A stretch of 64,000 bases of DNA, taken from assembly GCA_039931975.1 (NCBI GenBank), contig JBDTQW010000001.1, positions 2,921-66,920 of the forward strand, given 5' to 3'. The position numbers were made by a program, and so were the translations under genes. The stretch is from Chloroflexota bacterium (GTDB taxonomy: Bacteria > Chloroflexota > Limnocylindria > Limnocylindrales > CSP1-4). The first letter of the stretch is position 1; each line of letters opens with the position of its first letter. Of this stretch, positions 25,805 through 62,100 are shown piece after piece. The notes beneath the pieces were generated by a model. It did no database searches. It saw only the letters and a program-made list of their open reading frames with translations, and was not told where the DNA came from.

Positions 25805-25872
25805 CTGGAGGTGGCGCCGGCGGAACGGATCAGATCGGATCACGTGCCCCGAGTCTAGCTCGCGACGGCCGA

Positions 25873-27405
25873 TCAGGGTTCGGCGGAGAGGCCCTTCGGG
25901 CCGACACCGACCGACGTCCTGGAAAGGTCGCGTCCGGTCGACGACAGCGCACCCCGGACCGGGTTCACGACGTCTGCGGTCAGCGTCCACGTACCGGCGT
26001 CGGGCGGAGCCACGAGGGCGACGCTCAGCGCAACGGCCTGACCGGGCGCCAGCTCGGCGGGCACCTCGGCCGCCGGCAGCTCGGTGCCGTCGTCCGATCG
26101 CCAGGACAGGACGAACAGGGTCGGGGTCGCGGGCGCGATCGTCCGAGTGCCTTCCGCCTCGAGGACGGGCGTCCGCCAATCGAGCGAGCCGATGTTGGCC
26201 AGACCGACCTTTACCTTGAACCGTTCGCCGGCGGTGACGTCACCGACCGCGGGCAGGCTGACCCTGGCGGCAAACGGATCCACGACCTCGACGACGACGG
26301 TGCGGAAGGACCGCGATGGCGTCCTATGGCCGACCTCCGTCAGCCCGAGGCTGAGTCGATACCGACCGGGGATCGTCGGCACCGGGACCGCCGCGCGGAA
26401 CCCCGACGAGCTGGGCCGATCGGGAGCCGACGAGGTCGTCGCAGCGACGGGCGGGGGAGGGAGTCCCGCACCCGGCGACGCACCGTCGAGCACGGCTCGC
26501 AGGAGCCGCGGCGGCTGGGCCACTCGCGCCGCTGCCACGGGTACCCAGCGGCCGACGAAGCGGTGGGCCGCCGGGTTCGGGAAGCCACTCGAGATGTGCA
26601 GGCCGACCGACACCCGGAGGACCGACCCTGCGACCGCCGTCGTCGCGAGCCGGGGGCTGGTCAGGTCATAGGCGTGATCGGTCAGCGGCGCGGTCTGGGG
26701 CTGGTGGCGGACCGGAGTCGCCGCGGCCATCACCTTGCCGCGGTCGATCGTGGCGAAGCGATGAAGCGCCTCGACGTTGATCCACTCGCCGGGATAGTGG
26801 CCCTCGGCGAGGGGGTCCATCAGCCAGACCTTGCCGTGGATCCGGTCGTACGTCTGGATGTAGACGGCGTGGCTGTTGTTGCGGCGGTTGGCGAAGGCCC
26901 GGTCCCAGCGCGTGAAATACGCCGACAGCCGGCCGTACTCGCCGATGAGCACCGCTCCGCCGTTGTGCTCGATCCGATCCAGGAGCTGCCACCAGGTCAT
27001 CGTGTCGCCGGACCCCGGCGAGAAGCGCAGGCGGATCCCGGTGACTGCCCCGACGCCACGCGCCAGGTTGTACAGGCTCGAGCCGCCCTTCTTGTCGTTG
27101 GATGCGCGGCGCAGGACACTCTGGCTGACCCGGACGCCCCCATGGGTCCACTTGTCGACGAGCATCGCCCCCGCCGCCCACACGCAGTTCTTCTTCATCT
27201 GCCAGACGCGATGGGGGGTGTACTCGCGGGTCGGCCGATCGGGCGACGACGTCGCTTCAGCCGGGACCGGGGTCAGCCACGTCGCGTCAGCTTGGGCGGG
27301 CAGGGTGGCAGCGGATCCGGCGACCACGACCAGTCCCACGACGACGCGCGCGATGAGGCGCAGAGATCGGGCGCGTCGGGTCAGGGGTGGGACATCGTGG
27401 GGCAC
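25873..27405 (-). CDS. Secreted protein with an N-terminal C39-like (papain-fold) peptidase domain and a C-terminal beta-rich domain
   Basis: A signal peptide is present (LRLIARVVVGLVVVAGSAATLPAQA). A Cys motif QMKKNCVWAAGAML resembles the C39-like/BtrH_N catalytic region. Downstream His residues could complete a catalytic site. Confidence 0.5.
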   Translation of the reverse strand: MPHDVPPLTRRARSLRLIARVVVGLVVVAGSAATLPAQADATWLTPVPAEATSSPDRPTREYTPHRVWQMKKNCVWAAGAMLVDKWTHGGVRVSQSVLRRASNDKKGGSSLYNLARGVGAVTGIRLRFSPGSGDTMTWWQLLDRIEHNGGAVLIGEYGRLSAYFTRWDRAFANRRNNSHAVYIQTYDRIHGKVWLMDPLAEGHYPGEWINVEALHRFATIDRGKVMAAATPVRHQPQTAPLTDHAYDLTSPRLATTAVAGSVLRVSVGLHISSGFPNPAAHRFVGRWVPVAAARVAQPPRLLRAVLDGASPGAGLPPPPVAATTSSAPDRPSSSGFRAAVPVPTIPGRYRLSLGLTEVGHRTPSRSFRTVVVEVVDPFAARVSLPAVGDVTAGERFKVKVGLANIGSLDWRTPVLEAEGTRTIAPATPTLFVLSWRSDDGTELPAAEVPAELAPGQAVALSVALVAPPDAGTWTLTADVVNPVRGALSSTGRDLSRTSVGVGPKGLSAEP

Positions 27406-27503
27406 CGCCTGATCCTGTCAGCCCCGGTGACTTCCTCCCATCGCCCGTACGGTCGGATCGTGACGGTACGTTCGGCCCATACGCGGGGCGTCGGAGCGGC
27501 GAC

Positions 27504-27788
27504 TCAGCAGGGTTGACCGGTGGTCGAATGGGGTTCGGTCGCTGCTGGATCGCCGGCCAGGACCGTCCCGACCGTTACCAGCCGCCGACCCAGCCGGACC
27601 CGCGCGCCGCGCGGTCGATCGGATCCTTCGGCCCGGTCGGCGGGGCGATCCAACGCGTTGGCCAGGTTCTCGGCGCGGACCCGCGTCCGCTCCTCGTCGA
27701 GCCGCCTGCGGACGACGAAGAAGTCGTTATCTGGGTGCACGGTCCCCTCCTTTGCGCTATTCATCTCATCCTCTTGTAAGTCATTCAT
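27504..27788 (-). CDS. Small hypothetical ORF (94 aa) with an atypically AT-rich 5' end
   Basis: This is the only ORF in the 27406-27851 gap. Its first ~15 codons use AT-rich codons unlike the rest of the window. It may be non-coding. Confidence 0.2.
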   Translation of the reverse strand: MNDLQEDEMNSAKEGTVHPDNDFFVVRRRLDEERTRVRAENLANALDRPADRAEGSDRPRGARVRLGRRLVTVGTVLAGDPAATEPHSTTGQPC

Positions 27789-32621: not shown

Positions 32622-33290
32622 ACCGGAGCTCACAGGATCGAAAACGCCGCCACCTCGATCACGTCCGGACGATCGCCCGCGGACATCGAAGCCCGCCGGG
32701 CGGTCGAGGCCGTCCTCGGCGGCGACCGTGACGCGTTTCGGGTCCTCGTCGAGCGCGAATCCGCATCGGTGGTTCGCACCTGTTATCGGGTCCTCGGCGA
32801 CCTTCACGAGGCCGAGGACGCAGCCCAGGAGGCATTCGTGATCGCGTATCGCTCGCTCGCCGGTTGGCGCGGCGACGGCTCGTTCGGCGCCTGGCTCGGC
32901 CGGATCGCCGTGCGCAACGCGGTCCGTCGGGCGAAGGCGCGCCGAACGACCGCCCGGATCGATCCGGCCGACCCGGATCGCCTGATGGGCTCTGGTGCGA
33001 GCGAAGGCGCAGACCGGGCCGGACTCGCCGCGCTGGCGCTGGGGATCGGCCGCTCGAACGATCCGGCGGTCCTGAGCCTTCGCGCGGAGCGCGCCAACGC
33101 GCTGCGGCTGGCCGTGGCCCGCCTGGATGAGCCCTATCGCGAGACGGTCATGCTCCGGTTCTATGGCGAGCTGTCGCTCGCCGAGATCGCGGCCCAGACA
33201 GGTCGCCCGATCGGGACCGTCAAGACGCATCTCTTCCGCGGGCTCGCGAAGTTACGGGCCATCACGGCCAGCGAAGGTTTCGACCGGTGA
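32622..33290 (+). CDS. ECF (sigma-70 family) RNA polymerase sigma factor. The start codon is unresolved. The frame is open from 32622, and the first canonical start is GTG at 32769.
   Basis: Region 2 reads ...EARRAVEAVLGGDRDAFRVLVERESASVVRTCYRVLGDLHEAEDAAQEAFVIAYRSL, a textbook ECF region 2.1-2.2. Only the part after GTG 32769 follows a canonical start codon. Region 4 is ETVMLRFYGELSLAEIAAQTGRPIGTVKTHLFRGL. Confidence 0.8.
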   Translation, partial: TGAHRIENAATSITSGRSPADIEARRAVEAVLGGDRDAFRVLVERESASVVRTCYRVLGDLHEAEDAAQEAFVIAYRSLAGWRGDGSFGAWLGRIAVRNAVRRAKARRTTARIDPADPDRLMGSGASEGADRAGLAALALGIGRSNDPAVLSLRAERANALRLAVARLDEPYRETVMLRFYGELSLAEIAAQTGRPIGTVKTHLFRGLAKLRAITASEGFDR

Positions 33291-33979
33291 CCAACCTGTT
33301 CCACCCGAGCGAGCTGACCGGCGGGGATGCCGTCCAGCCGACCACGGCGGATCTGGGGCAATCGCTGTTGATCGCCCGTGAGCTCGAGAGCCTCCTGGCG
33401 GCAACGGACGTCCACCCGTCGGATCGGTTCGTCGATCGAGTCATGTCCGCGGTCGTGGCGCAGCCGCTCCCGCAGCCGGCCGTGGCGGCCGGGCTGGCCC
33501 TCCGAGGGGGACGGTTCGGGGCGATGCTCGCCGCCCTTGCCGACAACTGGCGGATCACCTTCAGCGGCGATCACCCATTCCCGGTTCGCGCCCAGGCCCT
33601 GGCCTTCGTCCTCGTCGCCGTTCTCGCCCTTGGCTCAGTGGGTGGGGTGGCGACGATCGGTGCCGTTCGCCTGCTCGGGCCGGCACCCAGCGTGGCCGCT
33701 CCGGCTCCGACGCAACAAGGCCCGGTGGTTGAGCCGACGCCGAGCCCGGTGCTCGGCCCGATCATCGCTCCGACGGATCACGAGGGCACCCCAGAACCGA
33801 GCACGACGCCCGAGCCGACAGAGACCGCCGAGCCGACCGAGGGGCAGGGCCCTGCCAAGACCCCGCGGGGGACCGAGACGGCTCAGCCCTCGGAGACCGA
33901 CGAACCGAAGGAGACCGACGAACCGAACAAGACCGAGGAGCCGGGCCACGGTCACGTGGACGGCGCCAGCCCCGACTGA
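33287..33979 (+). CDS. Anti-sigma factor. An N-terminal cytoplasmic segment is followed by a TM helix and a Pro/Thr/Glu-rich extracytoplasmic tail.
   Basis: The GTG start overlaps the sigma stop. The TM segment is ALAFVLVAVLALGSVGGVATIGAV. The gene is co-located with the ECF sigma. No conserved enzymatic motif is present. Confidence 0.6.
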   Translation: MTNLFHPSELTGGDAVQPTTADLGQSLLIARELESLLAATDVHPSDRFVDRVMSAVVAQPLPQPAVAAGLALRGGRFGAMLAALADNWRITFSGDHPFPVRAQALAFVLVAVLALGSVGGVATIGAVRLLGPAPSVAAPAPTQQGPVVEPTPSPVLGPIIAPTDHEGTPEPSTTPEPTETAEPTEGQGPAKTPRGTETAQPSETDEPKETDEPNKTEEPGHGHVDGASPD

Positions 33980-38959: not shown

Positions 38960-40441
38960 TCAGCCCGGCAGGGCGCCCGCAGCGGCTACGAGGTCATCCG
39001 CTGCCGATCGCAACCGGGCCGCGTCCTCCGCGGAGAAGCGATCGTCGCCGACTCGGTCGTCGACCGCGCTCCAGAACCGGGCGGCCTCGCGACGGGCGTC
39101 TCCATTGTCACCGTTCTGTATCGCCCGCTCGAACTGTTCGAGCGAGGACTCGAGGGCGTGGGCATCCTTGCGCTTGAGCGACCCATGGTCGATGGCGTCG
39201 TCGACGGCGGTCCGTGCAGCGGCCGATGCAGCCAGCGCCCGGGCCACCGGGCCGGGCGTCGGCACCGGGGTCGGGGTCGGCGTCGGCGACGGCGTCGGCG
39301 TCGGCACCGGGCTGGGCGTCGGCGTGGGGGATGCGGTCGGGGCCGGCAGGGACGGGCTGCCCGCGGTCGGGTCGGGACCGCCATTGCCTCGCCCGCCGAG
39401 CACCGAGGCGAGCAGCCAGGCGCCGGCAAGAACGACCAGCACCGCCTCGATGGCGACCAGCCCGACGAGGCGCCTCGATGGTCGCCCTGCCGCGTTCTCC
39501 GACGGGACCGCGACCGAGCGCACCGTCGGGGCGTCGCCGTCGAACGGCGACCGGACGCCCGACCCGACGGCGGCGATCGCGGGCAGAGGCCGGGCAGCGC
39601 GGGCCGGGCGGCTCGCCCGGAGCGCGGCGGTGAGGGCCGAGCCGAACCGGGCCGCCGAAGGCCGGTCGGCAGGCGACCGCGCAAGGGCGGCCGCGACCGG
39701 CTCGTCGTAGGCGGTTCCCAGCAGGGGCGCGGCCTGGGACACCGGCGGCGCGGCGATCCGGCTCGCCGCCACGATCTCGGCCAAATTGGCGACCGGCCGG
39801 GGCAGGGTCCCGGTCAGCCCGAGGTAGGCGACCACGCCCAACCCGTGAACGTCGCTCGCCGGCGATGCGGGCTCACCGGCGAGCTGCTCGGGCGCCAGAT
39901 AGGCCAGCGTTCCCACGGTCGTCTCCGGCACGGTCAGATCGCTCGGCTCCGCGAGGGCGATGCCGAGGTCGGCGATCCGGGCCCGACCGTCGCCGAGCAG
40001 GATGTTCGACGGCTTGAGATCGCGATGGACGATTCCCTGGAGATGGAGGGCATCGAGACCTGCCGCAACGTCCACCAGGATCGGGATGAGCTCCTCGGGC
40101 GCGAGGGTGCCCAGGTCCGACGCCGCCAGCCGGTCGGCGAGCGAGCCGTCGGCGCACAGGTCCATCACGAGGAACGGGTCGACCCCGGCCGCTGACTCGT
40201 CGGGACCGACGTCGTGGATGGCGACCACGTTGGGGTGGCTGAGCGCCGCCAACGCCCGGGCCTCGCGGTCGAACCGGGCGGCCAGGACCGGGTCGCTGAC
40301 ATGGTTGGGGAGGAGGATCTTGACCGCGACGTCACGGCCCAGGCGTATGTCGCGGGCGCGATAGACCGTCGCGAATCCACCGGACCCGATGCGGGCCAGG
40401 AGTCGGTAGCGGCCGACCAGGCGGGTCCCGATCCGGGGCAT
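38960..40441 (-). CDS. Ser/Thr protein kinase with a TM anchor, a Pro/Thr-rich linker and an extracytoplasmic C-terminal domain
   Basis: The Hanks kinase motifs GSGGFATVYRA, VAVK, HRDLKPSNILL, DLG and APE are present. A TM helix follows (LVGLVAIEAVLVVLAGAWLL), then a PTPTPSPVPTPTPSPTPTPTPVPTPGP linker. The ATG at 40441 is in frame with the longer track ORF. Confidence 0.9.
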   Translation of the reverse strand: MPRIGTRLVGRYRLLARIGSGGFATVYRARDIRLGRDVAVKILLPNHVSDPVLAARFDREARALAALSHPNVVAIHDVGPDESAAGVDPFLVMDLCADGSLADRLAASDLGTLAPEELIPILVDVAAGLDALHLQGIVHRDLKPSNILLGDGRARIADLGIALAEPSDLTVPETTVGTLAYLAPEQLAGEPASPASDVHGLGVVAYLGLTGTLPRPVANLAEIVAASRIAAPPVSQAAPLLGTAYDEPVAAALARSPADRPSAARFGSALTAALRASRPARAARPLPAIAAVGSGVRSPFDGDAPTVRSVAVPSENAAGRPSRRLVGLVAIEAVLVVLAGAWLLASVLGGRGNGGPDPTAGSPSLPAPTASPTPTPSPVPTPTPSPTPTPTPVPTPGPVARALAASAAARTAVDDAIDHGSLKRKDAHALESSLEQFERAIQNGDNGDARREAARFWSAVDDRVGDDRFSAEDAARLRSAADDLVAAAGALPG

Positions 40442-40468
40442 GGTCGGCAGGGTACCCGATGGCGGTGG

Positions 40469-41497
40469 ATGACCTACGATCGGCCGATGTTCGCCACGCT
40501 CGTCGGCGGCTACCCCGCAACGGATCCCGGCAGCCCGCCGGATCGGCCCGTCGACGACCTCGTCCGGGCCATCCTGGCTGAGCAGGCCGAGGCCGGCCTC
40601 GCGCTGCTGACGGACGGCTCCCTGCGCTGGCCGGATCCGGCCGAGACGATCGCGCGGGTCCTGCTCAGGACCGATCCTGCCGTGCCGCGGCGGGAGGCGC
40701 CGCTCACCCTGGATGCCTGGCGGTTCGCGGCGGACGCTGCCGGCGACATCCCGGTCAAGCAGTGCCTGCCCGGGCCGTACAGCCTCGGGCGCCGTTTCGC
40801 CGAAGGCGAGCCGGCCCGGGCCGATCTCACCAGGGCCTTCGCCGACGCCCTTGCCCTGGAGCTGGTCGATCTCGGCGCCGCCGGCTGCCCATTCATCCAG
40901 GTCGACGAGAACGCCGCGGTCTCGATCGGCCCGGACCCGGCGGAGCAGGCGCTCTTCCGCGATGCCCATTTGCGGCTCCTGGACGGCCTCGGCCCGGCGG
41001 GCGATCGGCCCCACCTGTCGTTGGCGATCAGTGGCGGGAACGCCGACCTTGCGGGCGGGGAAACCATCTTCGCGGCGCCGTACGACAGTCACCTGTTCGA
41101 CCTCATCGCCGGGCCCGACAACTGGCGCCTGATCACCACCGCTCCGGCCGAACGGGGGATCGTCCTCGGCGTCGCCGACGCCGGCTCGGCGCAGGTCGAC
41201 GAGCCCGAGGTCATCGTGTGGGCCGTCGCCTACGCATCGGCCAGCCGCGGTCGCGGTGACGCACGGATCGGGATCGCCCCGTCGGGCAGCCTGGCGGGCC
41301 TGCCCCGGGACGCAGCCCGGGCCAAGATCGAACGGCTCGGCGAGATCGTCAGGCTGGTCGACCGGCGGGCCGAGGAAGCCATCGCGGCGTCGCTCGATCC
41401 GCGCACCGTCGACAGTCGCAGCGCCGCCCTGGGACGCTGGACGCCGCCCGAGGCGCGGTATGCTCGGCCCGTCCGGGCGCCGCGTGAAAGGAGCTGA
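40469..41497 (+). CDS. Cobalamin-independent methionine synthase (MetE) C-terminal-domain-like protein, UroD/MetE fold
   Basis: A PFIQVDE motif resembles the MetE IQIDE motif. The domain length is about 340 aa. The ATG at 40469 is in frame. Confidence 0.55.
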   Translation: MTYDRPMFATLVGGYPATDPGSPPDRPVDDLVRAILAEQAEAGLALLTDGSLRWPDPAETIARVLLRTDPAVPRREAPLTLDAWRFAADAAGDIPVKQCLPGPYSLGRRFAEGEPARADLTRAFADALALELVDLGAAGCPFIQVDENAAVSIGPDPAEQALFRDAHLRLLDGLGPAGDRPHLSLAISGGNADLAGGETIFAAPYDSHLFDLIAGPDNWRLITTAPAERGIVLGVADAGSAQVDEPEVIVWAVAYASASRGRGDARIGIAPSGSLAGLPRDAARAKIERLGEIVRLVDRRAEEAIAASLDPRTVDSRSAALGRWTPPEARYARPVRAPRERS

Positions 41498-41516
41498 TGA
41501 TTAGCGAGAGCTGGCG

Positions 41517-44500
41517 ATGATCTGCGAGAGCTGCGGGACCGAGAACCGAGCCGGCCGGCGGTTCTGTCGGTCGTGCGGCAACGCGATGGCGGCGCTCTGC
41601 CCAGCATGCGGCTCGCCGGCCGAGCCGGGCGACCGCTTCTGTGGCACGTGTGGCAACCCGCTCACGGCGGAGACGGGCGTCGCCGCCGCCGACGGTCCCT
41701 CGGCGGGCCCAGGCCCGGACGCCGGTCCGTCCGGAGCCGGCGCGTCGACCGAGCGCCGAGTCGTCAGCGTCCTGTTCGCCGACCTGGTCGGCTTCACGGC
41801 CCTGTCCGCCGATCGCGACCCGGAGGCGGTCCGCGAATTCCTCGACGGCTACTTCGCCCTGGCCCGAGAGCGGATCGGGCGCTACGGCGGCACCATCGAG
41901 AAGTTCATCGGCGACGCGGTCATGGCCGTCTGGGGCACGCCGGTCGCCCACGAGGACGACGCTGAGCGAGCGGTCCGGGCGGCGCTGGACCTGCTGGATG
42001 CGATCGCTGAGCTCCGCGCGCCGGACGGATCGGCGATCGCGGTCCGCGGCGCGGTCCTCACCGGCGAGGCGGCGGTTGCGATCGGCCGTGACGGCCAGGC
42101 GATGGTCGCCGGGGATCTCGTCAACACGGCGTCGCGTCTCCAGAGCGTGGCTCCTCCAGGCTCCGTCCTCGTCGGAGAGGCCACCGTCAACGCCTCGGAA
42201 TCTGCGATCGTGTACGAGCCGGCCGGCGACCAGCTCCTCCGCGGCAAGGAGCTTCCGGTGTCCGCCTGGCGGGCCGTTCGCGTCGTGGCCGGGCGCGGCG
42301 GGTTCGGCCGGACCACCCGGCTCGAGGCGCCGTTCGTCGGTCGGGACGACGAGCTCCGACTGCTCAAGGAGCTGCTTCACGTCACTGCCCGCGACCGCCG
42401 AGCGCGGCTGGTCTCCATCCTCGGGATCGCCGGGATCGGCAAGAGCCGGCTGGCCTGGGAGCTCGAGAAGTACATCGACGGGTTGGTCGAGGTCGTCTAC
42501 TGGCACCAGGGCCGTTCTCCGGCGTACGGCGACGGCGTGGCGTTCTGGGCCCTCGGCGAGATGATCCGGGGGCGGGCCCGGATCGCCGAGTCGGACCCGC
42601 CTGACATTGCCCGGGTGAAGCTCGCGACGATGGCCGAGGAATACCTCCCGGACCCCGACGAGCGGACGCGGGTCGAGCCCCGTCTGGCGACCCTGCTTGG
42701 ACTGGGGGGCGAGTCCGCCGGCAGTGCCGAGGAGCTGACCGCAGCCTGGCGCACGCTATTCGAGCGGATCGCCGACCGGGGCACCACCGTGCTCGTGTTC
42801 GAAGACCTCCATTGGGCGGACGCCGGGCTGCTCGACTTCATCGAGAGCCTGCTCAGCGCGTCACGGAACCGCCCGATCCTCGTCATCGCTCTAGCCCGGC
42901 CCGAGCTGATCGAGGATCGCCCGGGATTCGGCGCAACGCTCCGGAACCACACCCGCCTCGATCTCGCGCCGCTGACGGACGAGGCGATGGACATGCTCCT
43001 CCTCGGTCTCGTCCCGGGCATCCCCCAGGCGGCCCTGCGGACCATCCGGGATCGGGCAGCGGGCATCCCGCTGTACGCCGTCGAGACCGTCCGGATGCTC
43101 CTCGACCAGGGGCGTCTGAGCGAGTCCGAGGGCCGCTTCCGGTTGGTCAGCGACCTGGGATCGCTGGCGGTCCCGGAGTCGCTCCAGGCGCTCCTCGGGG
43201 CACGGCTCGACACGCTCGACGAGCCCGCCCGCGAGCTCGTCGAGATCGCCGCCGTCCTCGGCCTGAGTTTCACGGTCGACGCCCTCGTGGCCTTGTCGGA
43301 CCGGCAGGAAGCCGAGGTACGCCGCCGGCTCGATGGCCTCGTCGCGCGGGAGGTCTTCCAGTTCGACGACGATCCCTCGTCTCCGGAACGAGGCCAGTTC
43401 CAGTTCATCCAGGGGGTCCTGCGCGAGGTGGCCTATACCCGGCTCGCCCGACGAGAGCGGCTCGCCCGACACCTGGCGGCGGCGAACTACTACGAGACCC
43501 GAGCGGGCGAGGAGCTGGCCGGGATCGTGGCCTGTCACTACCAGGACGCGCTGAACAGTGCTCCGGACGACGCTGATCGGTCCGAGCTTGCCGTGCAGGC
43601 CGGGACCGCCCTCGAGGCCGCCGCGAACCGCTCGACCGCGATCGGCGCCCACGCCAGCGCGGCAGGCTACCTCGGGGACGCCGCCAAGCTAACGACCGAT
43701 GAGGCCGAACGATCCCGGTTGAACGAGATGCGCTCCAACGCGTTGGGCGCCGCCGGCCAGCTCGACGAGGCCGGGAACCTGGCTCGTGAGCTCGTCGAGC
43801 TGGGCCGCCTGCGTGGCGACCGAGGCCTCGAGGCGCGAGCGGCGATCAGTCTCACCGCCGCCCTGCTCGGGAGCGGTCGTCCGGCCGATGCGCGGCGCGA
43901 GGCCGAGGCGGTCCGGGCATCGCTGGGGCCCTTCGCGGACGAGGAGCCCGACGGGATCCGGCTGACAGCGGAGGTCGCGCGAGCCCAGCTGATGAGCGGC
44001 GACCATGGCGCCGCGCTCGAGCTCATCGAGGCGACCCTTCCGATCGCGGAACGGCTCGGGCTGCGAGAGGTGATGGCCCAGCTCCTGCCGAGCTGGGGCT
44101 GGGCGTTGAACGGCGACGGTCGGCCGATCGAGGCGCTGGCGGTCCTGCGCGGTGCGCTCGCGTTCGCCGAGCGCGAGGGCCTGTTCGAGGCAGAGATGCG
44201 TTCTCGGATGAACCTGTCCTCGTTCGCGGTGCGCGAGTCGCCGGCCGAGGCGCTCGAGGTGGCCTGGACCGGCAGCGTCCATGCGCGCGAGCGTGGCTAC
44301 ATCGGCTGGTCGAACTCGGCCGCAGGAAACGTCGCTTCGTGTGCCCGTCCGCTCGGTGAGTGGGACCGGATCGAGTCGATCGGGTCCGAGCTCGACTCGC
44401 TCGGCGATTGGCTCAGCCCGTGGGACTTCGCGGTCCCGGCCGAGATCTGCATCATCCGCGCGTATCGCGGCCGAGCCGCGGAGGCGCGCGACCTGATCGA

Positions 44501-45104
44501 GCGGTTCGAGCGCCAGTTCGGCGACATGTCGGACCCGCAGATCCAGGTGACCCTCATCTTGCTTCGCGAGAGCATGGCCCTGGCCGAAGGCGACCTGGCC
44601 GAGTCCATCCGGGCCAGTCGCGAGGCCCAACGGTTGCTGGACCAGCTCGGGACCGAGGACCTGTTCTCGGAGGCGCTCGCGGCGGCGGTCGAGGCGCTCG
44701 ATGCCGAGCGCGTTGGCGAAGTGGCGGACGCGATCCGCCGCGGCGGGGCCGCCGGTCGCGTCTCCGGCGCCGTTCTAACGGCGGCATCCGGCGCGCTGCG
44801 GGTCCTCGACGGCGACCGGTCGGCGTTGGAGGAGCTCGACCGTGCGGCCGACGTGCTCCGGCAGGAGGGCGTCCGATTCGCGCTCGCCCTGATCCGCCGG
44901 GCCCGAGTCATGCTCGCTCCGGAAGACGCCGGAGCCGACGCGGCGGCGGCCGAGGCTCGGGCGATCCTGACCGACCTCGGGGCCGTCACGATGTTGCGGG
45001 GCCTGCCCGCTCCGTCCGTGGTGATGAGGGAGGACGAACCGACCGGCGCGCAGACGGCCCATGCCTCGACCGATCCGGGTACCGCGGGGGTGGCCCCCGG
45101 CTGA
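41517..45104 (+). CDS. Multidomain signalling protein: double zinc ribbon, class III adenylate/guanylate cyclase domain, STAND/AAA ATPase and a TPR-like helical repeat region. No DNA-binding domain is evident.
   Basis: The N-terminus CESCGTEN...CRSCG / CPACG...CGTCG forms two zinc ribbons. The cyclase core is RVVSVLFADLVGFTALS...GGTIEKFIGDAVMAVWG. Walker A is ILGIAGIGKSRLAWE and Walker B-like is VLVFEDLHWAD. About 650 aa of helical repeats follow. Confidence 0.85.
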   Translation: MICESCGTENRAGRRFCRSCGNAMAALCPACGSPAEPGDRFCGTCGNPLTAETGVAAADGPSAGPGPDAGPSGAGASTERRVVSVLFADLVGFTALSADRDPEAVREFLDGYFALARERIGRYGGTIEKFIGDAVMAVWGTPVAHEDDAERAVRAALDLLDAIAELRAPDGSAIAVRGAVLTGEAAVAIGRDGQAMVAGDLVNTASRLQSVAPPGSVLVGEATVNASESAIVYEPAGDQLLRGKELPVSAWRAVRVVAGRGGFGRTTRLEAPFVGRDDELRLLKELLHVTARDRRARLVSILGIAGIGKSRLAWELEKYIDGLVEVVYWHQGRSPAYGDGVAFWALGEMIRGRARIAESDPPDIARVKLATMAEEYLPDPDERTRVEPRLATLLGLGGESAGSAEELTAAWRTLFERIADRGTTVLVFEDLHWADAGLLDFIESLLSASRNRPILVIALARPELIEDRPGFGATLRNHTRLDLAPLTDEAMDMLLLGLVPGIPQAALRTIRDRAAGIPLYAVETVRMLLDQGRLSESEGRFRLVSDLGSLAVPESLQALLGARLDTLDEPARELVEIAAVLGLSFTVDALVALSDRQEAEVRRRLDGLVAREVFQFDDDPSSPERGQFQFIQGVLREVAYTRLARRERLARHLAAANYYETRAGEELAGIVACHYQDALNSAPDDADRSELAVQAGTALEAAANRSTAIGAHASAAGYLGDAAKLTTDEAERSRLNEMRSNALGAAGQLDEAGNLARELVELGRLRGDRGLEARAAISLTAALLGSGRPADARREAEAVRASLGPFADEEPDGIRLTAEVARAQLMSGDHGAALELIEATLPIAERLGLREVMAQLLPSWGWALNGDGRPIEALAVLRGALAFAEREGLFEAEMRSRMNLSSFAVRESPAEALEVAWTGSVHARERGYIGWSNSAAGNVASCARPLGEWDRIESIGSELDSLGDWLSPWDFAVPAEICIIRAYRGRAAEARDLIERFERQFGDMSDPQIQVTLILLRESMALAEGDLAESIRASREAQRLLDQLGTEDLFSEALAAAVEALDAERVGEVADAIRRGGAAGRVSGAVLTAASGALRVLDGDRSALEELDRAADVLRQEGVRFALALIRRARVMLAPEDAGADAAAAEARAILTDLGAVTMLRGLPAPSVVMREDEPTGAQTAHASTDPGTAGVAPG

Positions 45105-45248
45105 CCTGCCGGCGGCCGTTCCAGGTTGCGGTTCCGGCTTGATTCCCAGGCGCGGGGGTGCCACCATCGCGGTTCACCTCTCCCGACCCGCTCCGTCCCC
45201 CGGAGAGGCGCATCGACCGGTCCCCGCGCACCTCGGAAGGAGAGCCCC

Positions 45249-45752
45249 GTGGTCGCTGAGCACGTCAAGCTGACCGTCAACGGCGTCGAGCGAGAGGTGG
45301 TGGTCGAGCCCAGACGACTGCTCGTACATGCGCTCCGCGAGGACCTTGGGCTGACCGGCACCCATGTCGGCTGCGATACCAGCCAGTGCGGCGCCTGCAC
45401 GGTCCAGCTCGATGGACGAGCCGTCAAGTCGTGTGCCGTCCTGGCCGTCCAGGTCGACGGGTCCACGATCACGACGATCGAGGGCCTCGCCCCCGCAGAC
45501 GGGCTCCATCCGCTCCAGACCGCGTTCTGGGAGAAGCACGGCCTGCAGTGCGGGTTCTGTACGCCCGGGATGATCATGGCTGCGGCCGACCTGCTGGCCG
45601 GCAACCCCGATCCGACCGACGACGAGATCCGGCACGCGATCGAGGGCAACATCTGCCGTTGCACCGGCTACCACAACATCGTGGCTGCGATCCGCGAAGC
45701 AGCGGCGACGATCCGGGCCGGTTCTGCGGCCCCCATCACCGTCAACGCCTGA
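45249..45752 (+). CDS. coxS: Aerobic-type molybdenum hydroxylase small subunit with two [2Fe-2S] clusters, CoxS-like
   Basis: Two cysteine motifs are present: [11 protein letters not shown] (plant-type) and CGFCTPGM...CRCTGY. A GGAAGGAGAG Shine-Dalgarno sequence is followed by a GTG start at 45249. Confidence 0.9.
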
Positions 45753-45765
45753 GAGGAGGCTCCCG

Positions 45766-48165
45766 ATGGCCACCGACGTCCTGGGCGCCTCGATTAAGCG
45801 TGTCGAGGACCCGCGTTTCATCACTGGCAAGGGCCGCTATCTCGACGACATCAAGCTGCCCGGGATGACCTACATGGCCATTTTGCGCAGCCCGTACGCC
45901 CACGCCAACATCCGCTCCGTCGACACCGCTGCAGCGGCCGCGATGCCCGGCGTGGTGACGGTCCTGACCGGCGCCGACGTCCCCTACAACCCGCTGCCGA
46001 TGGCCTGGCCGGCCGGTGGCTCGTCGGGGGTCCAGAACAACATCAACATGCCCCGGGCGCTGGCGACCGACAGCGTCAAGTGGACCGGCGAGGGCGTCGC
46101 CGCGGTCATCGCCGAGACGCCCGAGCAGGCGGCCGACGCGCTCGATGCGATCGTCGTCGACTGGGAGCCGCTGCCGACCGTGGTCGACGCCGAGAAAGCG
46201 GTCCAGGACGGCGCGCCGCAGCTCCACGAGAACGCTCCGAACAACGTCGTGTTCGAGTGGACGGTCGGCGACAAGGCCGGCACGGACGCGGCCATCGAGG
46301 CTGCGGAGGTCGTGGTCCGCCAGCGGATCGTCAACCAGCGGCTCATCCCCAACCCAATGGAGGTGCGCGGCGACATCGGCCTGTACAACCCCGGCACCGA
46401 GGAGTACACGGTCTGGATGTCGAGCCAGACGCCGCACATCCAACGGCTCCTGCTCACCGCCTTCGTGACCGGCATCCCCGAGCACAAGGTCCGCTGCATC
46501 GCTCCCGACGTCGGCGGCGCGTTCGGGACCAAGATCTTCTGCTACGCGGACATGGCCCTGGTCATGCTCGCCTCGAAGCTCATCGGTGGACGCCCGGTGA
46601 AGTGGGTCGAGACCCGGCGGGAGAACTACCAGAGCACGACCCACGGTCGCGACCACATCACCTACCTGGAGATCGCGGGCAATCGCCAGGGGGAGATCAG
46701 CGGGCTTCGGGTCAAGACCTATGCCAACCTCGGCGGCCGGCTCTCGACGATCGGCCCGGGCATCCCGACGACCCTCTACGCCCGCGTCCTGGCGGGCTGT
46801 TACAAGATCCCCAACGTCCATTGCGAGGTCACTGGCGTCTACACCAACACGACCTTCGTCGACGCCTATCGCGGCGCCGGACGGCCCGAGGCGACCTACG
46901 TGATCGAGCGCGCGATGGACCTGTTCGCCGACGAGATCGGAATGGATCCTGCGGCGATCCGGCGCAAGAACTTCATCGCCCCCGACCAGTTCCCGTATGA
47001 CAACCCGTCGGGCCTCGGCACCGCGGTCAACGGCGAGAAGATCTACATCGATTCGGGCAACTATGAGCCGGCCCTGGACAAGGCCCTGACCGCCGTCGGC
47101 TACTACACGCTCGACAAGGACAAGGCCGAGGCGCGCAAGCGCGGCAAGTACCTTGGCGTCGGCCTGTCGACCTACATCGAGGTCTGCGGCGTTGCGCCGT
47201 CGAAGTGGATCGGCGCGGTCGGCGAGGGCTGGGGCGCCGCGATGTGGGAGTCGGCCAATCTCAAGGTCCACCTGACCGGCAAGATCATCCTGACGATGGG
47301 TACCCAGCCCCAGGGCCAGGGTCACGAGACGACTTACTCACAGATCATCGCCTCGGAGCTGGGCCTGCCGATGGAGGACATCATCGTCCAGCACTCGGAT
47401 ACCCAGGGGACGCCGTTCGGCTATGGCTCGTACGGCAGCCGGACGGGGTCGGTCGGGGGGACCGCGGCGGTCCTGGTCGCCGGCAAGATCCGCGAGAAGG
47501 CCCGCCGTTATGCCGCGCACATGCTCGAGGCCTCGGTCGACGACATCGAGGTCGAGGGCAACGAGTACCGGGTCAAGGGCTCGCCCGAGCAGAAGAAGAC
47601 GCTCCAGGAGATCGCCTTCGCGCTCGATCTCGGGTTCAGCCTGCCCGACGGCATGGAGCCATATCTCGACGAGACCGTGTACCACGACACGCCGAACTGC
47701 ACCTGGCCGTTCGGGACCCACGTGGCCATCGTCGAGATCGACGAGGAGACCGGCGTCGTCGACCTCAAGCGATACGTCGCGGTCGACGACGTCGGCAAGA
47801 AGATCAACCCGATGATCGTCGACGGCCAGCTCCACGGCGGGATCGTCCAGGGCGTCGGGCAGGCACTCTGGGAGGAGGCCGTCTACAACGACGACGGCCA
47901 GCTCCTGTCGGGCACCATGCTCGACTATGCGCTGCCCAGGGCGTCCTGGCTGCCGGCGCTCGAGCTGGACGAGACGGTCACCCCGTCGCCGGTCAACCCG
48001 CTGGGGGTCAAGGGCGTCGGCGAGGCCGGCGCGATCGCCAGCACGGCGGCCGTGGCCAACGCCGTCATCGACGCGCTCAGTCCGCTCGGCGTGCGTCATC
48101 TCGACATGCCCCTGACGGCACCCAAGATCTGGGGCGCCATCCACGGGAAGGAGGCCCGCGCGTGA
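45766..48165 (+). CDS. coxL: Molybdopterin-binding large subunit of an aerobic-type Mo hydroxylase, form II CoxL-like with an AYRGAGR active-site loop
   Basis: The protein is 799 aa. The N-terminus is [23 protein letters not shown]. The active-site loop [14 protein letters not shown] is the form-II signature rather than form-I VAYRCSFR. Confidence 0.9.
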
Positions 48166-49028
48166 TCCCGGCAGCCTTCAATTACACCCGTCCCGCTGAT
48201 CTGGCCGCCGTCCTCGAGCAGCTCGCGAACGGCGGGGACGGGGTCAAGGTCCTGGCCGGAGGCCAGAGCCTCATCCCGCTCCTCCGGCTGCGCCTGGCCA
48301 GCGCCGCCACGCTCGTCGACATCGGCGGGCTGCCCGAGCTGCGCAGGATCCGCGAGCTGCCCGACGGCGACCTGGGGATCGGCGCGACCGTCACCTACCG
48401 GGAGGTCCTCGACTCGGAGGTGGCGACCGCACGGGTCCCGCTGCTGGCCCTGGCCATCCAGGGCATCGGCGACGTCCAGGTACGCAACCGGGGCACCCTC
48501 GTCGGCTCGATCGCCCACGCCGATCCCGCCTCGGACATGCCCGCCATCGTGCTCGCCCTCGACGCCACCCTGACGATCCGCTCGAGGCGTGGTGAGCGGG
48601 AGGTGGCCGCCGCCGACTTCTTCGAGGGCCCGTTCGTCACGGGACTGGAAGATGACGAGCTGGTGACCGAGCTCCGGATCCCGGCTCCACCGGCCGGAGC
48701 GGGGATGGCCTATCGCCGGCTCGAGCAGCGCGCCTCGGGCTATTCGATCGCCGGCGTGGCAGCCGTCGTCGGCCGCTCGGGCGGCTCGGTGACGACCGCC
48801 CGGGTGGGCATCACCGGCGTCGGCGATGCCGCCTACCGGGCGGCGGCTGTCGAGACTGCGCTCCTCGGCACGAGCGGCGACGCGGCGGCGATCGCCGCGG
48901 CCGCGGCGCACGCGACCGATGGGGTCACCGTCGCCTCGGATATCCACGCCGGGGTGGAATATCGGGCCGAGATGGCGCGGGTCCACACTCGACGGGCGAT
49001 CGAGGCGGCGCTGGCCGCCAGCGACTGA
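48162..49028 (+). CDS. coxM: FAD-binding medium subunit, CoxM-like
   Basis: The FAD-binding PCMH domain contains AGGQSLIPLL. It belongs to the CO dehydrogenase flavoprotein family. The GTG start overlaps the coxL stop. Confidence 0.85.
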   Translation: MIPAAFNYTRPADLAAVLEQLANGGDGVKVLAGGQSLIPLLRLRLASAATLVDIGGLPELRRIRELPDGDLGIGATVTYREVLDSEVATARVPLLALAIQGIGDVQVRNRGTLVGSIAHADPASDMPAIVLALDATLTIRSRRGEREVAAADFFEGPFVTGLEDDELVTELRIPAPPAGAGMAYRRLEQRASGYSIAGVAAVVGRSGGSVTTARVGITGVGDAAYRAAAVETALLGTSGDAAAIAAAAAHATDGVTVASDIHAGVEYRAEMARVHTRRAIEAALAASD

Positions 49029-57824: not shown

Positions 57825-58367
57825 ATGACCACCCAGAAGGTCCACCTCACCGTCAACGGCGAGGCCCGCGAGGCGGAGGTCGAGCCGCGGCTCCTCCTCG
57901 TCCACCTGCTGCGCGACGTGTTCACCTTGACCGGCACCCACATCGGCTGCGACACCAGCAACTGCGGGGCATGCACCATTCTCGTCGACGGCGAAAGCGC
58001 CAAGTCGTGCACGATGCTGGCCCTCAGCGCCGAGGGCCGCGAGATCACGACGATCGAGGGCCTGGCCGACGGTGCCACCCTCCACCCGCTCCAGCAGGCG
58101 TTCTGGGACCAGCACGGCCTGCAATGCGGCTTCTGCACCCCGGGCATGATCATCCAGGCCTCGTGGTTGCTCGCCCGCAATCCCGACCCGTCCGAGGCCG
58201 AGATCCGCGAAGGGATCGCCGGTAACCTCTGCCGCTGCACCGGCTACGTCAACATCGTCAAGGCGATCCAGCAAGCCGCCGGCGAGCTGAGCGCCGTTGC
58301 TGCGGCCCCGGTCGTGGCCGCCGAGACGATCGATCCGGGCGCCGCCGATGCAGCCGCGGCCGGCTGA
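57825..58367 (+). CDS. coxS: [2Fe-2S] small subunit, CoxS-like (second copy)
   Basis: The cysteine motifs [11 protein letters not shown] and CGFCTPGM...CRCTGY are present. It is a paralog of the 45249 gene. Confidence 0.9.
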
Positions 58368-58381
58368 GCGAGGCGAACGAG

Positions 58382-58654
58382 ATGGCCGCAGACGCGCTCC
58401 AGACGACGCCCGAAGTGGGCGGCATGGGCCACTCAGTTAAGCGCAAGGAGGATGCCCGCTTCATCCAGGGCCGGGGCGAATACATCGACGACCTGGTCCT
58501 GCCCGGCATGCTCTGGCTGGACATCGTCCGGAGCCCGTACGCCCACGCCCGGATCAAGGGCATCGACGCGACCGAGGCACTGGCGATCCCCGGTGTCCTG
58601 GCGGTTCGCGAGCCGACGGCCTACGTCGGGACCGGCGCCACGACCGGCGGCTGA
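58382..58654 (+). pseudogene. Truncated CoxL-like large-subunit gene. Only the N-terminal ~85 conserved residues remain.
   Basis: GMGHSVKRKEDARFIQGRGEYIDDLVLPGMLWLDIVRSPYAHARIKGIDATEALAIPGVLAV aligns with the N-terminus of the 799-aa CoxL at 45766. The ORF stops 21 nt before coxG. About 700 codons are missing. Confidence 0.65.
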
Positions 58655-58674: not shown

Positions 58675-59115
58675 ATGCATTTCGAAGGCAGAGTCGAGAT
58701 CGCGGCTCCCCGCGACAAGGTCTGGTCGTTCGTCATCGATCCGACCGAAGTGGGCCAGTGCGGACCGGGTGTCGAGTCGGTCGAGGCCGTCGACGACAGC
58801 CACTTCAAGGCGAAGGCCAAGGTCGGCATCGGCTTCATCCGCGCCCGGTTCAACGCCGACGGCGAGATGATCATCATCTCTCCGCCGGAGCTCGCCGAGG
58901 TGAAGGTCCACGGCCAGGCGCCCGGCAGTGCCGCCGACGCGGTCGCGACGATCAAGCTGAGCCAGGGCGGCGAGGGCATCACGATCATGGACTGGTCGGC
59001 CGAGGTCAACATCTCGGGCACCCTGGCCAGCGTGGGCGCGAGGCTCATCGAAGGCACGGCCAACAAGCTCATCGCTCAGACGTTCGCGTGCATGAAGACC
59101 AAGCTCGAGGGCTGA
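58675..59115 (+). CDS. coxG: CoxG-like SRPBCC-fold protein (carbon monoxide dehydrogenase subunit G family)
   Basis: The protein is 146 aa with a polyketide-cyclase/SRPBCC-like composition. It begins MHFEGRVEIAAPRDKVWSFVIDP. Its position after coxL matches cox clusters. Confidence 0.75.
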   Translation: MHFEGRVEIAAPRDKVWSFVIDPTEVGQCGPGVESVEAVDDSHFKAKAKVGIGFIRARFNADGEMIIISPPELAEVKVHGQAPGSAADAVATIKLSQGGEGITIMDWSAEVNISGTLASVGARLIEGTANKLIAQTFACMKTKLEG

Positions 59116-59124
59116 TCGGACCGC

Positions 59125-62100
59125 TCAGCGCTCGAGCGGCGACTGCGCAGGGGACGCCGATCCTTCGGACGGTCCTCCGGCCGCGACGCCAGCCGACCCC
59201 GCCGGCGCTGGGCGAGACCAGTGCTCGACCCCGATCCTCAGACGCTCCAGGTACGGCGGTGAGCCCAGGCGGGTGAAGATCTCCCCGGCCTCGACGGCTG
59301 CCGCCCGGGCGGCCGGGTCGTCGGGACCGACCAGCGTCGCGAACTCCAGGAGGCACAGGCCCAGATCGAATGGGAGATCGAGCTCGCGGAAGGTCGCGGA
59401 CGCCGCGCGGTACCCCTCGGCGGCCTCCGATCGACCCCCTTCGAGCGCCGCAAGGCCTGCCTGCAGCGACCGCCGGATCGCCCCGGAATACCGGCCGCGT
59501 TCGGGGGCCGCGATCACGAGCTCATAGGCGGACCGAGCCTTCTGGAGATCGCGCATCGAGAGCGCCCAGCGCATCGCAAGCGTGGCGTACACGATTGCCG
59601 GCGCGAGCCTGGCGCCGGTCATCGCCTCGTCGAACGCCTCCTCGACATCGTTGTCCAGACCGACGATCTGTGATCGATCGGAATGCCGCCAAGCCAGGAA
59701 CTCAGGCCGGGAGATATCCGTGGCGACCGCTTCGGAGGCCGACAGCAGCTCCCGCGCCGACCCGGCGTCACCACGCAACGCTGCAATGACCGCACGTGCG
59801 CTCAGGTTGGCGTCCTGATCGTAGGAGCTGAGATCGCCCGCTTCCAGCTCCTCGACGTTTTGTAGGGCACGGTCCCATTCCCCGAAGGCGATGCTGGCCT
59901 TCATCGTGCCCCAGGTCGCCCACCTGTACTGCTCGCCACTGCCAAGCGAGCGCGCCCGTTCGATGGCTTCGAGACTTACTGCATCGGCGGCCCGCGGGTC
60001 GTCGTTCCAGAGCTGTACCGCGAGATTGCTCCGGCCTCGCAGCTCCGCCGTCGTCAGACCATTGGCCGTAGCAAGCTCGATCGCTCCTCGGAGCAGGGCG
60101 ATGCCTTCGACTGGCCTTCCCTCGGTATCGAGGATCGCAGCCTTCGTGACGAGCGCGTCGGCCAGGATCCAGACGGCCTCGAGTGGTTCGGCCATCGCGA
60201 TCGCCCGTTCGATCGTCCCGAGCGCCCGGGGGTCGTAGGTCACCATGTAGGCGCGTCCGAGCTCGGCGTGGAGCGCGATCACGTCAGGTTCTCCGGCAAG
60301 CTCCGAGCAGGCTGCCAAGGCGGACTCGAGCAGGTCGATTGCCTCGGCCGACCGTCCGGTCTCGAAGTACGGCTGAGTCTGCCGGATGGTCATACGGGCA
60401 ACGCCACGGAGATCGCCGATGGAGCGATACCAATCCGACGCTTCCCTCGCGGACCGCTCGGCGACGTCGAACCGCGTCGCGCGATTCGCTGCGACGGCGG
60501 CCGAGTCCATGGTCGCGGCTCGCTCGGCCGGATCTGTCGTGACCGTCAGAGCCTTTTCGAGGTAGCTCAACGCCAGGTCATTCGACCCAAGGGCGGTGGC
60601 CCGGTCGGCGGCGGCCCGCAGGGCGACCCGGGCCTGGGCGGCCAGCGCGTCCGATCCCGGGCCCTGGGGCGTCGCGCGGTACGCGTCGAGGTAGTGGCTG
60701 GCGAGGATGCCGGCCAGCTCCTCGCTGTCGAGTGTCTCGAAATAGCGCGCCGCGGCGATGTGACGGGCACGGCGTTCCTTCTTCGCCAGGGTGTCGTAGA
60801 CGACCTCGCGGATGAGCCCCTGGACGAAGGAGTACTGACCTCGCTCGGGCGACCGGGGGTCTTCGTCGAGGGTGAGGATCTCCTGGCGGACCAGGATCCG
60901 GAGGCTCGGTTCGAGCCGTTCCGTCAATCGTCCCGTCAGGGCGGCGAGGGCGTCCACGGTGAAGGTCTGGCCGAGGACGGCAGCATCCTGGAGCAGCGAC
61001 CGTTCCTCGCCCGCCAACCCGTCGATGCGAGCGGCGATCAGGCCTCGCAGCGACTCGGGGATCGCGAGCTCACGCGCGTCGCCTTCGAGCCGATAACGAC
61101 CATCCGCTGGAACGAGGCGACCTTCGTCGACCAGCATCCGGAAGGTCTCGACGGCGAACAGCGGGACCCCGGCGGCACGCTCGACGATCCGACGCATGAA
61201 TGGCCTGGGCAGGCCAGGGGCGACCCCGTCGAGCAGCCCGGTCATCGCCTCGTCCGACAGTGGCTCCAGGTGGAGCGCGGTGAAGTTGCGCTGGCCGGCC
61301 CCCCAGGTCGGCCGACGGTCGAGCAACTCCGGTCGGGCCAGGGTCACGATGAGGATCCGATGGTTGCGGCTCCACTCCAGGATCGATTCGATGAACGTGA
61401 TGAGCCCGCTGTCGGCCCACTGAAGGTCCTCGAACACCAGGACGACGAGACCTCGCTCGGCGATCCGCTCGAGCAGCCCCCGTGCCGCAGCGAAGGCCTT
61501 CTCCTGGTCTTCCCCGCGGGCCTCGCGGAGCCCGAGAAGGGCCTGCAGCCAGGGCTCGATCTCGCCGCGTGCGGTCTCGTCGGGCACGTACTCGTCGAGC
61601 GCCGCCGCCAGCTTTGTCCGGGCAGTCTCGGCGTCATCGACCTCGGCGATCCCCGCGCGGCCGCGGACCATCTCGGCCAGTGCCCAGAAGGCGATGCCCT
61701 CGCCGTAGGCGGGCGACCGACCCTGGTGCCAGTAGACGTCATGGACGATCCCGTCGATGTACTTCTCCAGCTCCCAGGCGAGCCGGCTCTTGCCGATCCC
61801 GGCGATCCCGGTCACCGACACCAGCCGGGCCCGCTTCTCGTCGTCGACTGCGTGAAGCAGGTCCTTGAGCAGGCGGAGCTCGGCGTCACGTCCCACGAAT
61901 GGCGGTTCCAGCCGATCCACGCGACCACCGCCCCCGCGCATCGCGATCACGCCGATCGCGCGCGAGGCGGCCACCGGAGCCGCCTTGCCGCGGAGCTCCA
62001 GCTCACCGGCCGATTGGGATGCGATGGCCGACTCGGTCGCTCGGCGAGTCGGTTCGTCGATCAGCACAGCACCCGGGGGCGCGACGGACTGGAGGCGCGA

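Follow-up and report, generated by a model that had tools for sequence, protein, structure and literature searches.

The stretch of Chloroflexota contig analysed here, 64,000 nucleotides (nt) in length and referred to throughout as the window, carries two paralogous genes, copy 1 and copy 2, each of which encodes within a single polypeptide a double zinc ribbon, a class III nucleotide cyclase domain, an ATPase of the STAND family and a long array of helical hairpins of the tetratricopeptide repeat (TPR) type. This is the arrangement that an original prediction, made from the letters of the window alone, had read in both copies, and Pfam bears it out. The features of the two genes are given below with their strand and with amino acid (aa) positions.

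41517 to 45104 (+): copy 1, 1195 aa from ATG to stop, consisting of double zinc ribbon (DZR), class III cyclase, STAND NTPase and TPR sensor
41523 to 41654 (+): double zinc ribbon, copy 1 aa 3-46 (Pfam DZR, E 2e-9)
41745 to 42290 (+): class III cyclase catalytic domain, copy 1 aa 77-258 (PF00211, residue alignment, Foldseek)
42330 to 43400 (+): STAND nucleotide-binding oligomerisation module, copy 1 aa 272-628 (AAA_16, invariant residues, fold of PDB entry 6mfv)
43401 to 44996 (+): arm and TPR-like helical-hairpin solenoid, the putative sensor, copy 1 aa 629-1160 (AlphaFold2, predicted local distance difference test (pLDDT) 95-98)
44997 to 45101 (+): disordered C-terminal tail without helix-turn-helix (HTH), copy 1 aa 1161-1195 (pLDDT <50 from residue 1174 onward)
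59125 to 62679 (-): copy 2, 1184 aa from a GTG start, with the architecture of copy 1 (Pfam)

The two copies are paralogs that share 47% identity over their full length, and the G+C content at third codon positions (GC3) of the copy 1 reading frame, 0.88, matches that of the other real genes in this window of ~71% G+C. The Pfam family Guanylate_cyc (PF00211) aligns with residues 81-245 of copy 1 at 72.8 bits and with residues 68-233 of copy 2 at 55.6 bits (cutoff 21.9), and AAA_16 aligns with residues 272-457 and 260-436, respectively, at 74.6 and 72.5 bits (cutoff 32.6); a match to TPR_MalT at residues 746-888 of copy 1 is weak, as are the TPR matches of copy 2. Eight cysteines of the zinc ribbon (Cys 3, 6, 17, 20, 28, 31, 42 and 45) are present in both copies and are invariant wherever the region is present among 107 aligned homologs. 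This zinc ribbon is taken to be a putative accessory module. In the databases, the NCBI protein P0001, which comes from a Chloroflexota metagenome-assembled genome (MAG) and is named "adenylate/guanylate cyclase domain-containing protein", matches copy 1 with 100% identity. The NCBI call of copy 2 (P0121, 'AAA family ATPase') is 1115 aa long and starts 69 codons downstream, with loss of the zinc ribbon, the omitted 5' end being 62473-62679 (-). Because the orthologs P0122 and P0123 carry the double zinc ribbon, the long form of copy 2 is supported, and many database homologs that seemingly have no DZR may owe this to the same start-site artefact.

The catalytic positions of copy 1 were assigned by HMMER alignment to Rv1625c (4p2f, 1yk9) and CyaB (3r5g). 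D89 and D133 are the two metal-binding Asp, K129 is the substrate Lys, N203 and R207 are the transition-state Asn and Arg (N372 and R376 of Rv1625c), and M196, seven residues before the Asn, is the second substrate position, which is held by Asp365 in Rv1625c and by Thr in CyaB. In a set made up of the two copies and 109 full-length homologs of copy 1, both Asp and the Lys were kept in 110/110 sequences having the residue and the Arg in 111/111, the catalytic Asn was present in 110 sequences with copy 2 as the sole exception, and position 196 was Met in 94 and Leu in 14. Given that the metal Asp pair, the Lys, the Asn and the Arg are all kept, copy 1 is a fully equipped class III cyclase with predicted activity. 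The diffusible cyclic nucleotide that had been proposed as one possible output is the best reading, the catalytic residues being invariant among the relatives of copy 1. Both copies show the marks of a class III cyclase, namely a PF00211 match above the gathering score, the cyclase fold and two metal Asp; the transition-state Asn/Arg pair is present in copy 1 and broken in copy 2, where D76, K116, D120, L184 and R195 are in place and S191 stands where Asn is expected. Six orthologs of copy 2 (P0122-4, P0127, P0136, P0144) have Ser in common at this position and the remaining orthologs keep Asn. Degeneracy of the catalytic residues, which would have counted against the original prediction, is therefore absent from copy 1 and limited to one position, Asn to Ser, in copy 2, which is probably weakened catalytically. 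With regard to substrate, a Lys/Asp or Lys/Thr pair goes with ATP and a Glu/Cys or Glu/Gly pair with GTP, and the pair found here is Lys/Met196 in copy 1 and Lys/Leu184 in copy 2. Since Lys stands in the place of Glu, a canonical guanylyl cyclase is disfavoured and ATP is the most likely substrate, an assignment that the non-canonical Met or Leu keeps tentative.

An AlphaFold2 model of copy 1, made from an input alignment of 107 sequences and having a mean pLDDT of 88.3, places the zinc ribbons at 1-50, joined by a disordered linker (52-74) to the alpha/beta cyclase domain (77-256), which is followed by a P-loop nucleotide-binding domain (NBD) with helical domain and winged helix at ~272-628, a long arm helix at 645-681 and ~13 helical hairpins at 688-1160 (pLDDT 95-98), after which follows the disordered tail of 35 aa. 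The cyclase domain superposes on CyaB, Cya2, CyaC and RhGC with a Foldseek target-normalised TM-score (TMt) of 0.8-0.92, and the top PDB match to the whole model is PH0952 (6mfv, E 1.5e-11 in Foldseek), whose crystal structure is the archetype for STAND proteins that sense through TPRs. Walker A of copy 1 reads GIAGIGKS, with K309 invariant, and Walker B reads VLVFED (D430), the family form being FE[DE]; the GxP motif of the helical domain (G516, P518) is invariant across the family. AAA_16, Walker A/B, a GxP helical domain, a winged helix and a repeat sensor after them are all present, as expected of the MalT/AAA_16 clade of STAND proteins. The ~650 aa of helical repeats of the original prediction stand in part: ~200 aa of them (~486-685) are helical and winged-helix subdomains of the NTPase together with the arm, and the solenoid proper (~688-1160 in copy 1) comes to ~470 aa. 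Its repeats are genuine TPR-type repeats, because the family profile, when compared with the PDB, matches the TPR domains of LGN/Pins at profile positions 740-940 (E ~1e-11).

Conservation is unevenly distributed along these proteins. Identity is highest in the cyclase and NBD (62-64% between the copies, 73-74% family mean) and lowest in the sensor (28-35% between the copies, 35-46% family mean), a pattern of steady cyclase and NBD beside a variable sensor that is, as far as alignments can tell, receptor-like divergence. Within this divergent sensor the most conserved stretch is the last TPR hairpin, at aa 1130-1165 of copy 1 (window ~44905-45010), for which the consensus is ARAMLAPDDPGA..AA..EAR.IL..LGAVTLLRGL. 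Across the family alignment, the Ala at position 188 of the 236-aa C-terminal fragment never varies, and P176, L195, G196 and A197 hardly do; earlier in the sensor, R822 and R895 are invariant. The conserved residues of the last hairpin, together with R822 and R895, could serve as a binding site common to the family or as a contact for autoinhibition.

No DNA-binding domain was found at the C-terminus by any of the approaches taken. Pfam searches of each copy, made with its C-terminal 295 and 545 aa, returned neither GerE/LuxR nor any other HTH family at E<=10, the full-length AlphaFold2 model of copy 1 contains no HTH, and no HTH protein was matched when the family profile was searched against the PDB. 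When the C-terminal 236 aa of copy 1 were modelled on their own (pLDDT 92.2), the result consisted solely of helices of 14-18 residues paired into hairpins, and its best PDB matches by Foldseek are TPR proteins (LGN, Rap, AimR, KLC, OGT), none below E 0.07. Profiles and models thus agree that a cryptic C-terminal HTH is absent. The original prediction had seen no DNA-binding domain here and had called for a structural check of this very region, and on that point it was right, the end of the protein holding TPR-like hairpins only.

Far from being unusual, these two genes have relatives in great number. Protein searches with the two copies gave at least 8000 candidates each, and nearly all of the best 120 matches have the same domains and a length of ~1150-1200 aa. 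At least 597 loci were confirmed in species-representative genomes, from Chloroflexota/Limnocylindria, Gaiellaceae, Solirubrobacterales, Acidimicrobiia, Dormibacterota and Methylomirabilota (Actinomycetota included). A search of 1.84 billion representatives with the sensor domain alone gave 1254 representatives at 50% clustering, and in the full-length matches among the best 150 of these 1254 the sensor always lies at ~residues 640-1180, within this architecture alone. A class of sensor-bearing proteins of ~700 aa was considered as a new architecture and rejected as a gene-call or fragment artefact, because all of its members start at the equivalent of the internal Met491. The HTH-less form of cyclase-STAND protein is consequently the rule, not the exception, and the rarity that the original prediction had implied does not hold for so common a form. 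Its statement that the mycobacterial relatives end in a LuxR HTH is correct, and the combination of cyclase (CHD) and LuxR in Rv0386, Rv1358 and Rv2488c has been described as nearly exclusive to mycobacteria (PMC4452763). Both genes of the window are unexceptional representatives of a family of signalling proteins of soil bacteria that is very large and carries annotation but is unstudied.

The interpretation that we favour, and hold on balance to be probable, is that each gene is a self-contained, cytoplasmic, one-protein STAND device of the MalT/AAA_16 type whose sensor switches on a cyclase output. The inducer of a STAND protein is sensed by its C-terminal repeats, the NTPase, closed when bound to ADP, opens and multimerises with ATP, and the remaining domain is the effector; autoinhibition and multimerisation dependent on both inducer and ATP have been described for MalT and PH0952 (PMC6468293). 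The cyclase is taken to be the output because it is the sole remaining enzymatic domain and lies N-terminal to the STAND NTPase, and the output domain that the original prediction had considered missing is present after all as the N-terminal effector (PMC6468293). In the two proteins of the window, the C-terminal TPR solenoid would be the sensor and would bind a putative ligand or protein, and at rest the sensor and arm would hold the ADP-bound NTPase module closed. Binding of the ligand would release autoinhibition, permit the exchange of ADP for ATP and let the NTPase modules multimerise, the multimers would pair the N-terminal class III cyclase domains, and these would make a 3',5'-cyclic nucleotide, most probably cyclic AMP (cAMP), as an output for receptors whose genes lie elsewhere in the genome. 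Class III cyclases are active only as dimers. Because their active site spans the dimer interface, ATP-driven multimerisation of the NTPase would be a natural on-switch, acting by induced proximity. The divergent sensor, the absence of a partner gene and the parallel with full-length mammalian soluble adenylyl cyclase (sAC) all fit a self-contained receptor with a diffusible output.

Several observations weigh against this interpretation. The second substrate position is Met196 or Leu184, not Asp, Thr or Cys, and ATP is for that reason not distinguishable by sequence from GTP or another NTP. In copy 2 the catalytic Asn is replaced by Ser, a change that, going by the mutagenesis of mammalian cyclases that Yan et al. 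reportedly carried out in 1997, should lower turnover strongly. Among the Pfam-scanned genes of the window, none for a protein binding a cyclic nucleoside monophosphate (cNMP) was detected, and a search of the literature gave no characterised DZR-cyclase-AAA_16 protein. Finally, for full-length sAC itself no STAND-dependent regulator has been found in vitro (PMC12802110).

The surroundings of the two genes bear on what they might control. Two groups of neighbours, neither of them shown to belong with copy 1 or copy 2, are of particular relevance.

45250 to 49028 (+): coxS-coxL-coxM-like molybdenum (Mo)-hydroxylase genes (Pfam, NCBIfam, motif)
62770 to 63408 (+): metallo-beta-lactamase (MBL)-fold hydrolase, YcbL/glyoxalase-II-like, divergent from copy 2

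On the 5' side of copy 1, a MetE-like gene stops 20 nt short of the ATG, and a divergent Ser/Thr kinase gene and a two-component pair of OmpR type lie there as well. The longest open reading frames (ORFs) of the kinase, which has a C-terminal FIMAH domain (38960-41092, -), and of the MetE-like gene (40214-41497, +) overlap by ~880 nt; the ortholog lengths of 334-341 aa suggest true starts near 40490 and hence divergent genes. On the 3' side, coxS begins ~145 nt after copy 1, with a likely GTG start at 45250 preceded by the ribosome-binding site GGAAGGAG. The CoxL protein adjoining copy 1 (45766-48165, +) has the form II motif AYRGAGR and reaches 754 bits against a TIGR02416 cutoff of 991, and at this score it is probably not a true CO dehydrogenase. 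Beyond coxM are genes for a MoCF-biosynthesis-like protein, a MoxR-type AAA protein, CoxE (VWA), XdhC, a pyridoxal phosphate-dependent decarboxylase and a MobA-like protein, then a second coxM-coxS pair, a CoxL stub of 90 aa and coxG, to which copy 2 is convergent. The stub (58382-58654, +) is an N-terminal CoxL fragment between coxS2 (57825-58367) and coxG (58675-59115), and its first 75 aa have 84% identity to the 795-aa form I CoxL (AYRCSFR) of a related locus, L005; the remainder of coxL and the xdhC-like gene that follows it are missing. Apparently the catalytic subunit of a form I CO dehydrogenase has been lost from the MAG, or the assembly collapsed there.

The same gene arrangement recurs in eight related loci (L002, L003, L004, L005, L006, L071, L086 and L087) whose cyclase-STAND identity is 50-74%. 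The conserved block exceeds the cox cluster, extending from M16 peptidases, SRAP and rhomboid through to the MBL and ECF sigma genes, and it looks like general conservation of gene order within one lineage, among close relatives only. In P0020, which is 64% identical, and in most other relatives the neighbours are unrelated. When the neighbours in the window were compared by tblastn with 80 related loci, 42 of them long, a Mo-hydroxylase gene was found within 10 kb in 5/42 long loci, two of these being orthologs, and an MBL gene near family members in 3/42, at 33-36% identity; both counts are roughly those expected as background, on a rough and unmeasured estimate. The linkage to cox genes is therefore a lead and not a finding, since the block is wider than the cluster, P0020 is unlinked and the long loci with a Mo-hydroxylase are so few. 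All-versus-all clustering of the flanking ORFs of 78 loci gave no conserved partner gene, the sole recurrent neighbour being another paralog of the family, in 9 loci. In the window, palindromes of CRP type (TGTGA-N6-TCACA, <=2 mismatches) number 0 against 8.9 +/- 3.1 in dinucleotide shuffles, a comparison of low power because such shuffles ignore GC3 codon bias, and the depletion is probably a side effect of that bias, not of selection. A promoter and terminator scan of 40300-45500 found nothing.

The MBL-fold hydrolase beside copy 2 had been suggested to act on the cyclase product, and this suggestion finds no support. In Pfam the protein matches just Lactamase_B and Lactamase_B_2, its best NCBIfam match is GloB, below cutoff, and its nearest PDB structure is the hydroxyacylglutathione hydrolase YcbL (2xf4, E 4e-24), which makes the matches those of a YcbL-type glyoxalase II; an ECF sigma gene (63409 onward) follows directly, an arrangement repeated in L005 and L087, and linkage to the family is confined to the three loci mentioned above. 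Assignment to the class II cNMP phosphodiesterases was rejected on these generic Lactamase_B and YcbL/GloB-like matches, and by its sequence the hydrolase is not recognisable as a cNMP phosphodiesterase. Elsewhere in the window, a CHASE3-EAL protein (11999-14026, -) and an HD_5/HD-GYP-like protein (14827-16347, +) are encoded, which suggest cyclic di-GMP signalling nearby. ORFs at 24329-26179 (-), 26200-27516 (+) and 33287-33979 (+), of 616, 438 and 230 aa and with good GC3, have no Pfam match at E<=0.001.

One rival explanation is that both proteins are dedicated regulators of the CO-dehydrogenase/Mo-hydroxylase cluster that they bracket and act on it via a cyclic nucleotide. MalT-type STAND regulators classically control adjacent catabolic operons, copy 1 and coxS-coxL-coxM share a strand at close distance, copy 2 converges on coxG, and the arrangement is kept in eight relatives in which the cyclase-STAND proteins themselves have diverged so far. 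However, conservation reaches well past the cox genes and reads as the general gene order of a lineage, P0020 and most relatives are unlinked, Mo-hydroxylase genes accompany few of the long loci, and the window has none of the CRP-type palindromes in a test that is admittedly of low power. Dedicated regulation of the cluster is on these grounds unlikely, and the same degree of doubt attaches to its corollary, that the sensed cue would be a substrate or product of the cluster or carbon starvation. A narrower version, in which the paralogs are matched sensors that produce a cyclic nucleotide and gate the expression or maturation of the bracketed form II and form I CO-dehydrogenase operons, with copy 2 and its Asn-to-Ser change as a low-activity or modulatory partner, is somewhat less likely still; a literature search for a link between cAMP and CO dehydrogenase gave nothing specific. 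If it were true, the oxidation of trace gases by soil Chloroflexota of the Limnocylindria-like kind would be linked to a STAND-controlled cAMP signal.

Two further explanations concern the proteins themselves and not their neighbours. The cyclase domain might be a nucleotide-binding regulatory module, that is, a pseudoenzyme, with an output that consists of protein-protein contact via the TPR or the zinc ribbon. The Ser that takes the place of the catalytic Asn in copy 2 and in one ortholog subclade and the replacement of the canonical Asp by Met or Leu throughout the family speak in this direction, and the paper on the Mclx proteins argues alike for Rv1358 and Rv2488c, which have no canonical residues (PMC4452763). 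Yet catalytic residues kept across 110 sequences related to copy 1 are hard to explain without catalysis, most orthologs of copy 2 retain the Asn, and copy 2 itself retains both metal Asp, the Lys and the Arg. We regard a pseudoenzyme as improbable; the idea is most relevant to copy 2. The remaining explanation, to which we give the least credence, would make the proteins NLR-like conflict or anti-phage sensors, the TPR recognising a protein of the invader and the cyclase emitting a cyclic-nucleotide alarm as in Pycsar. The order of effector, STAND and TPR is that of such sensors, Avs3 is among the structural matches (rank 43 in Foldseek), the cyclase domain has weak matches to PycC hidden Markov models (HMMs) at E 8e-16, the sensor diverges fast and paralogs cluster, and the family is concentrated in Chloroflexota and Actinomycetota. 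Against this, PADLOC gives no Avs or other STAND defence model, and the PycC matches are partial, spanning the generic cyclase core only; copy 2 has in addition one marginal PADLOC match, to PDC-S39 (E 0.004). Nor is there an adjacent gene for a cNMP-binding effector or a conserved partner in the 78 loci, and both genes sit in a stable syntenic block of housekeeping character, not in a variable defence island.

With the self-contained STAND-cyclase device as the preferred interpretation, its significance needs to be put in proportion. As a discovery it matters little, since proteins of this architecture abound and have been annotated before, and their parts are well understood. Its value is that of a clean model, in bacteria, of the control that a STAND switch exerts over a class III cyclase, the very question that stands for full-length mammalian sAC (PMC12802110); with a single catalytic domain and a structure modelled with confidence, a bacterial protein would lend itself to study more readily than sAC. 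More broadly, the family is predicted to make up a large part of the cAMP signalling repertoire of uncultured Chloroflexota and Actinomycetota of soil.

Comparison with known systems sets the two proteins apart from several that share one or other of their parts. The best curated family match is TOMM system kinase/cyclase fusion (TIGR03903), with which the cyclase and NTPase core align (profile positions 263-908 for copy 1 and 283-955 for copy 2, at 213 and 216 bits); membership was rejected with these scores lying far below the cutoff of 705.75, with no match to an N-terminal protein kinase domain (Pkinase) and with no context of TOMM biosynthesis. Like the Pycsar cyclases (PycC), the proteins have a class III-like cyclase fold, with weak HMM similarity, and unlike them they are fused to STAND-TPR, have no adjacent gene for a cNMP-sensing effector and lie in a housekeeping context; assignment to Pycsar was rejected, the neighbours being cox genes, a MetE-like gene, MBL and ECF sigma. 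An antiviral STAND of Avs type was likewise rejected, there being no match to an Avs/STAND defence HMM and the syntenic context being stable.

Closer likenesses are found among regulators. The proteins share with the Mclx proteins Rv0386, Rv1358 and Rv2488c an N-terminal class III cyclase that is followed by a STAND-type ATPase (AAA/NB-ARC), and Rv0386 is an active cyclase (PMC4452763). Unlike the Mclx proteins, which end in a LuxR HTH, they have no HTH, carry a zinc-ribbon prefix and keep the substrate Lys. At the substrate-specifying site Rv0386 is said to have Gln/Asn, as Castro et al. reportedly found in 2005. Membership of the Mclx/LAL group was rejected, a C-terminal HTH having been tested for in both copies and being absent from both. 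With PH0952 of Pyrococcus horikoshii and with MalT the proteins have in common the module of NBD, helical domain, winged-helix domain, arm and TPR/SUPR together with Walker A/B of the AAA_16 type (PDB 6mfv; PMC6468293). The effector of MalT is, however, a C-terminal LuxR HTH and PH0952 has a small N-terminal domain, whereas the window proteins lack an HTH and have as effector an N-terminal class III cyclase behind a double zinc ribbon. The parallel in overall plan is offered by mammalian sAC in its full-length form (ADCY10, sACfl), with an N-terminal cyclase, then a predicted STAND P-loop region and no DNA-binding domain (PMC12802110). It differs in having tandem heterologous C1-C2 domains and predicted autoinhibitory and haem regions, whereas the proteins of the window bring to the same plan one catalytic domain, which would need homodimerisation, and a zinc ribbon.

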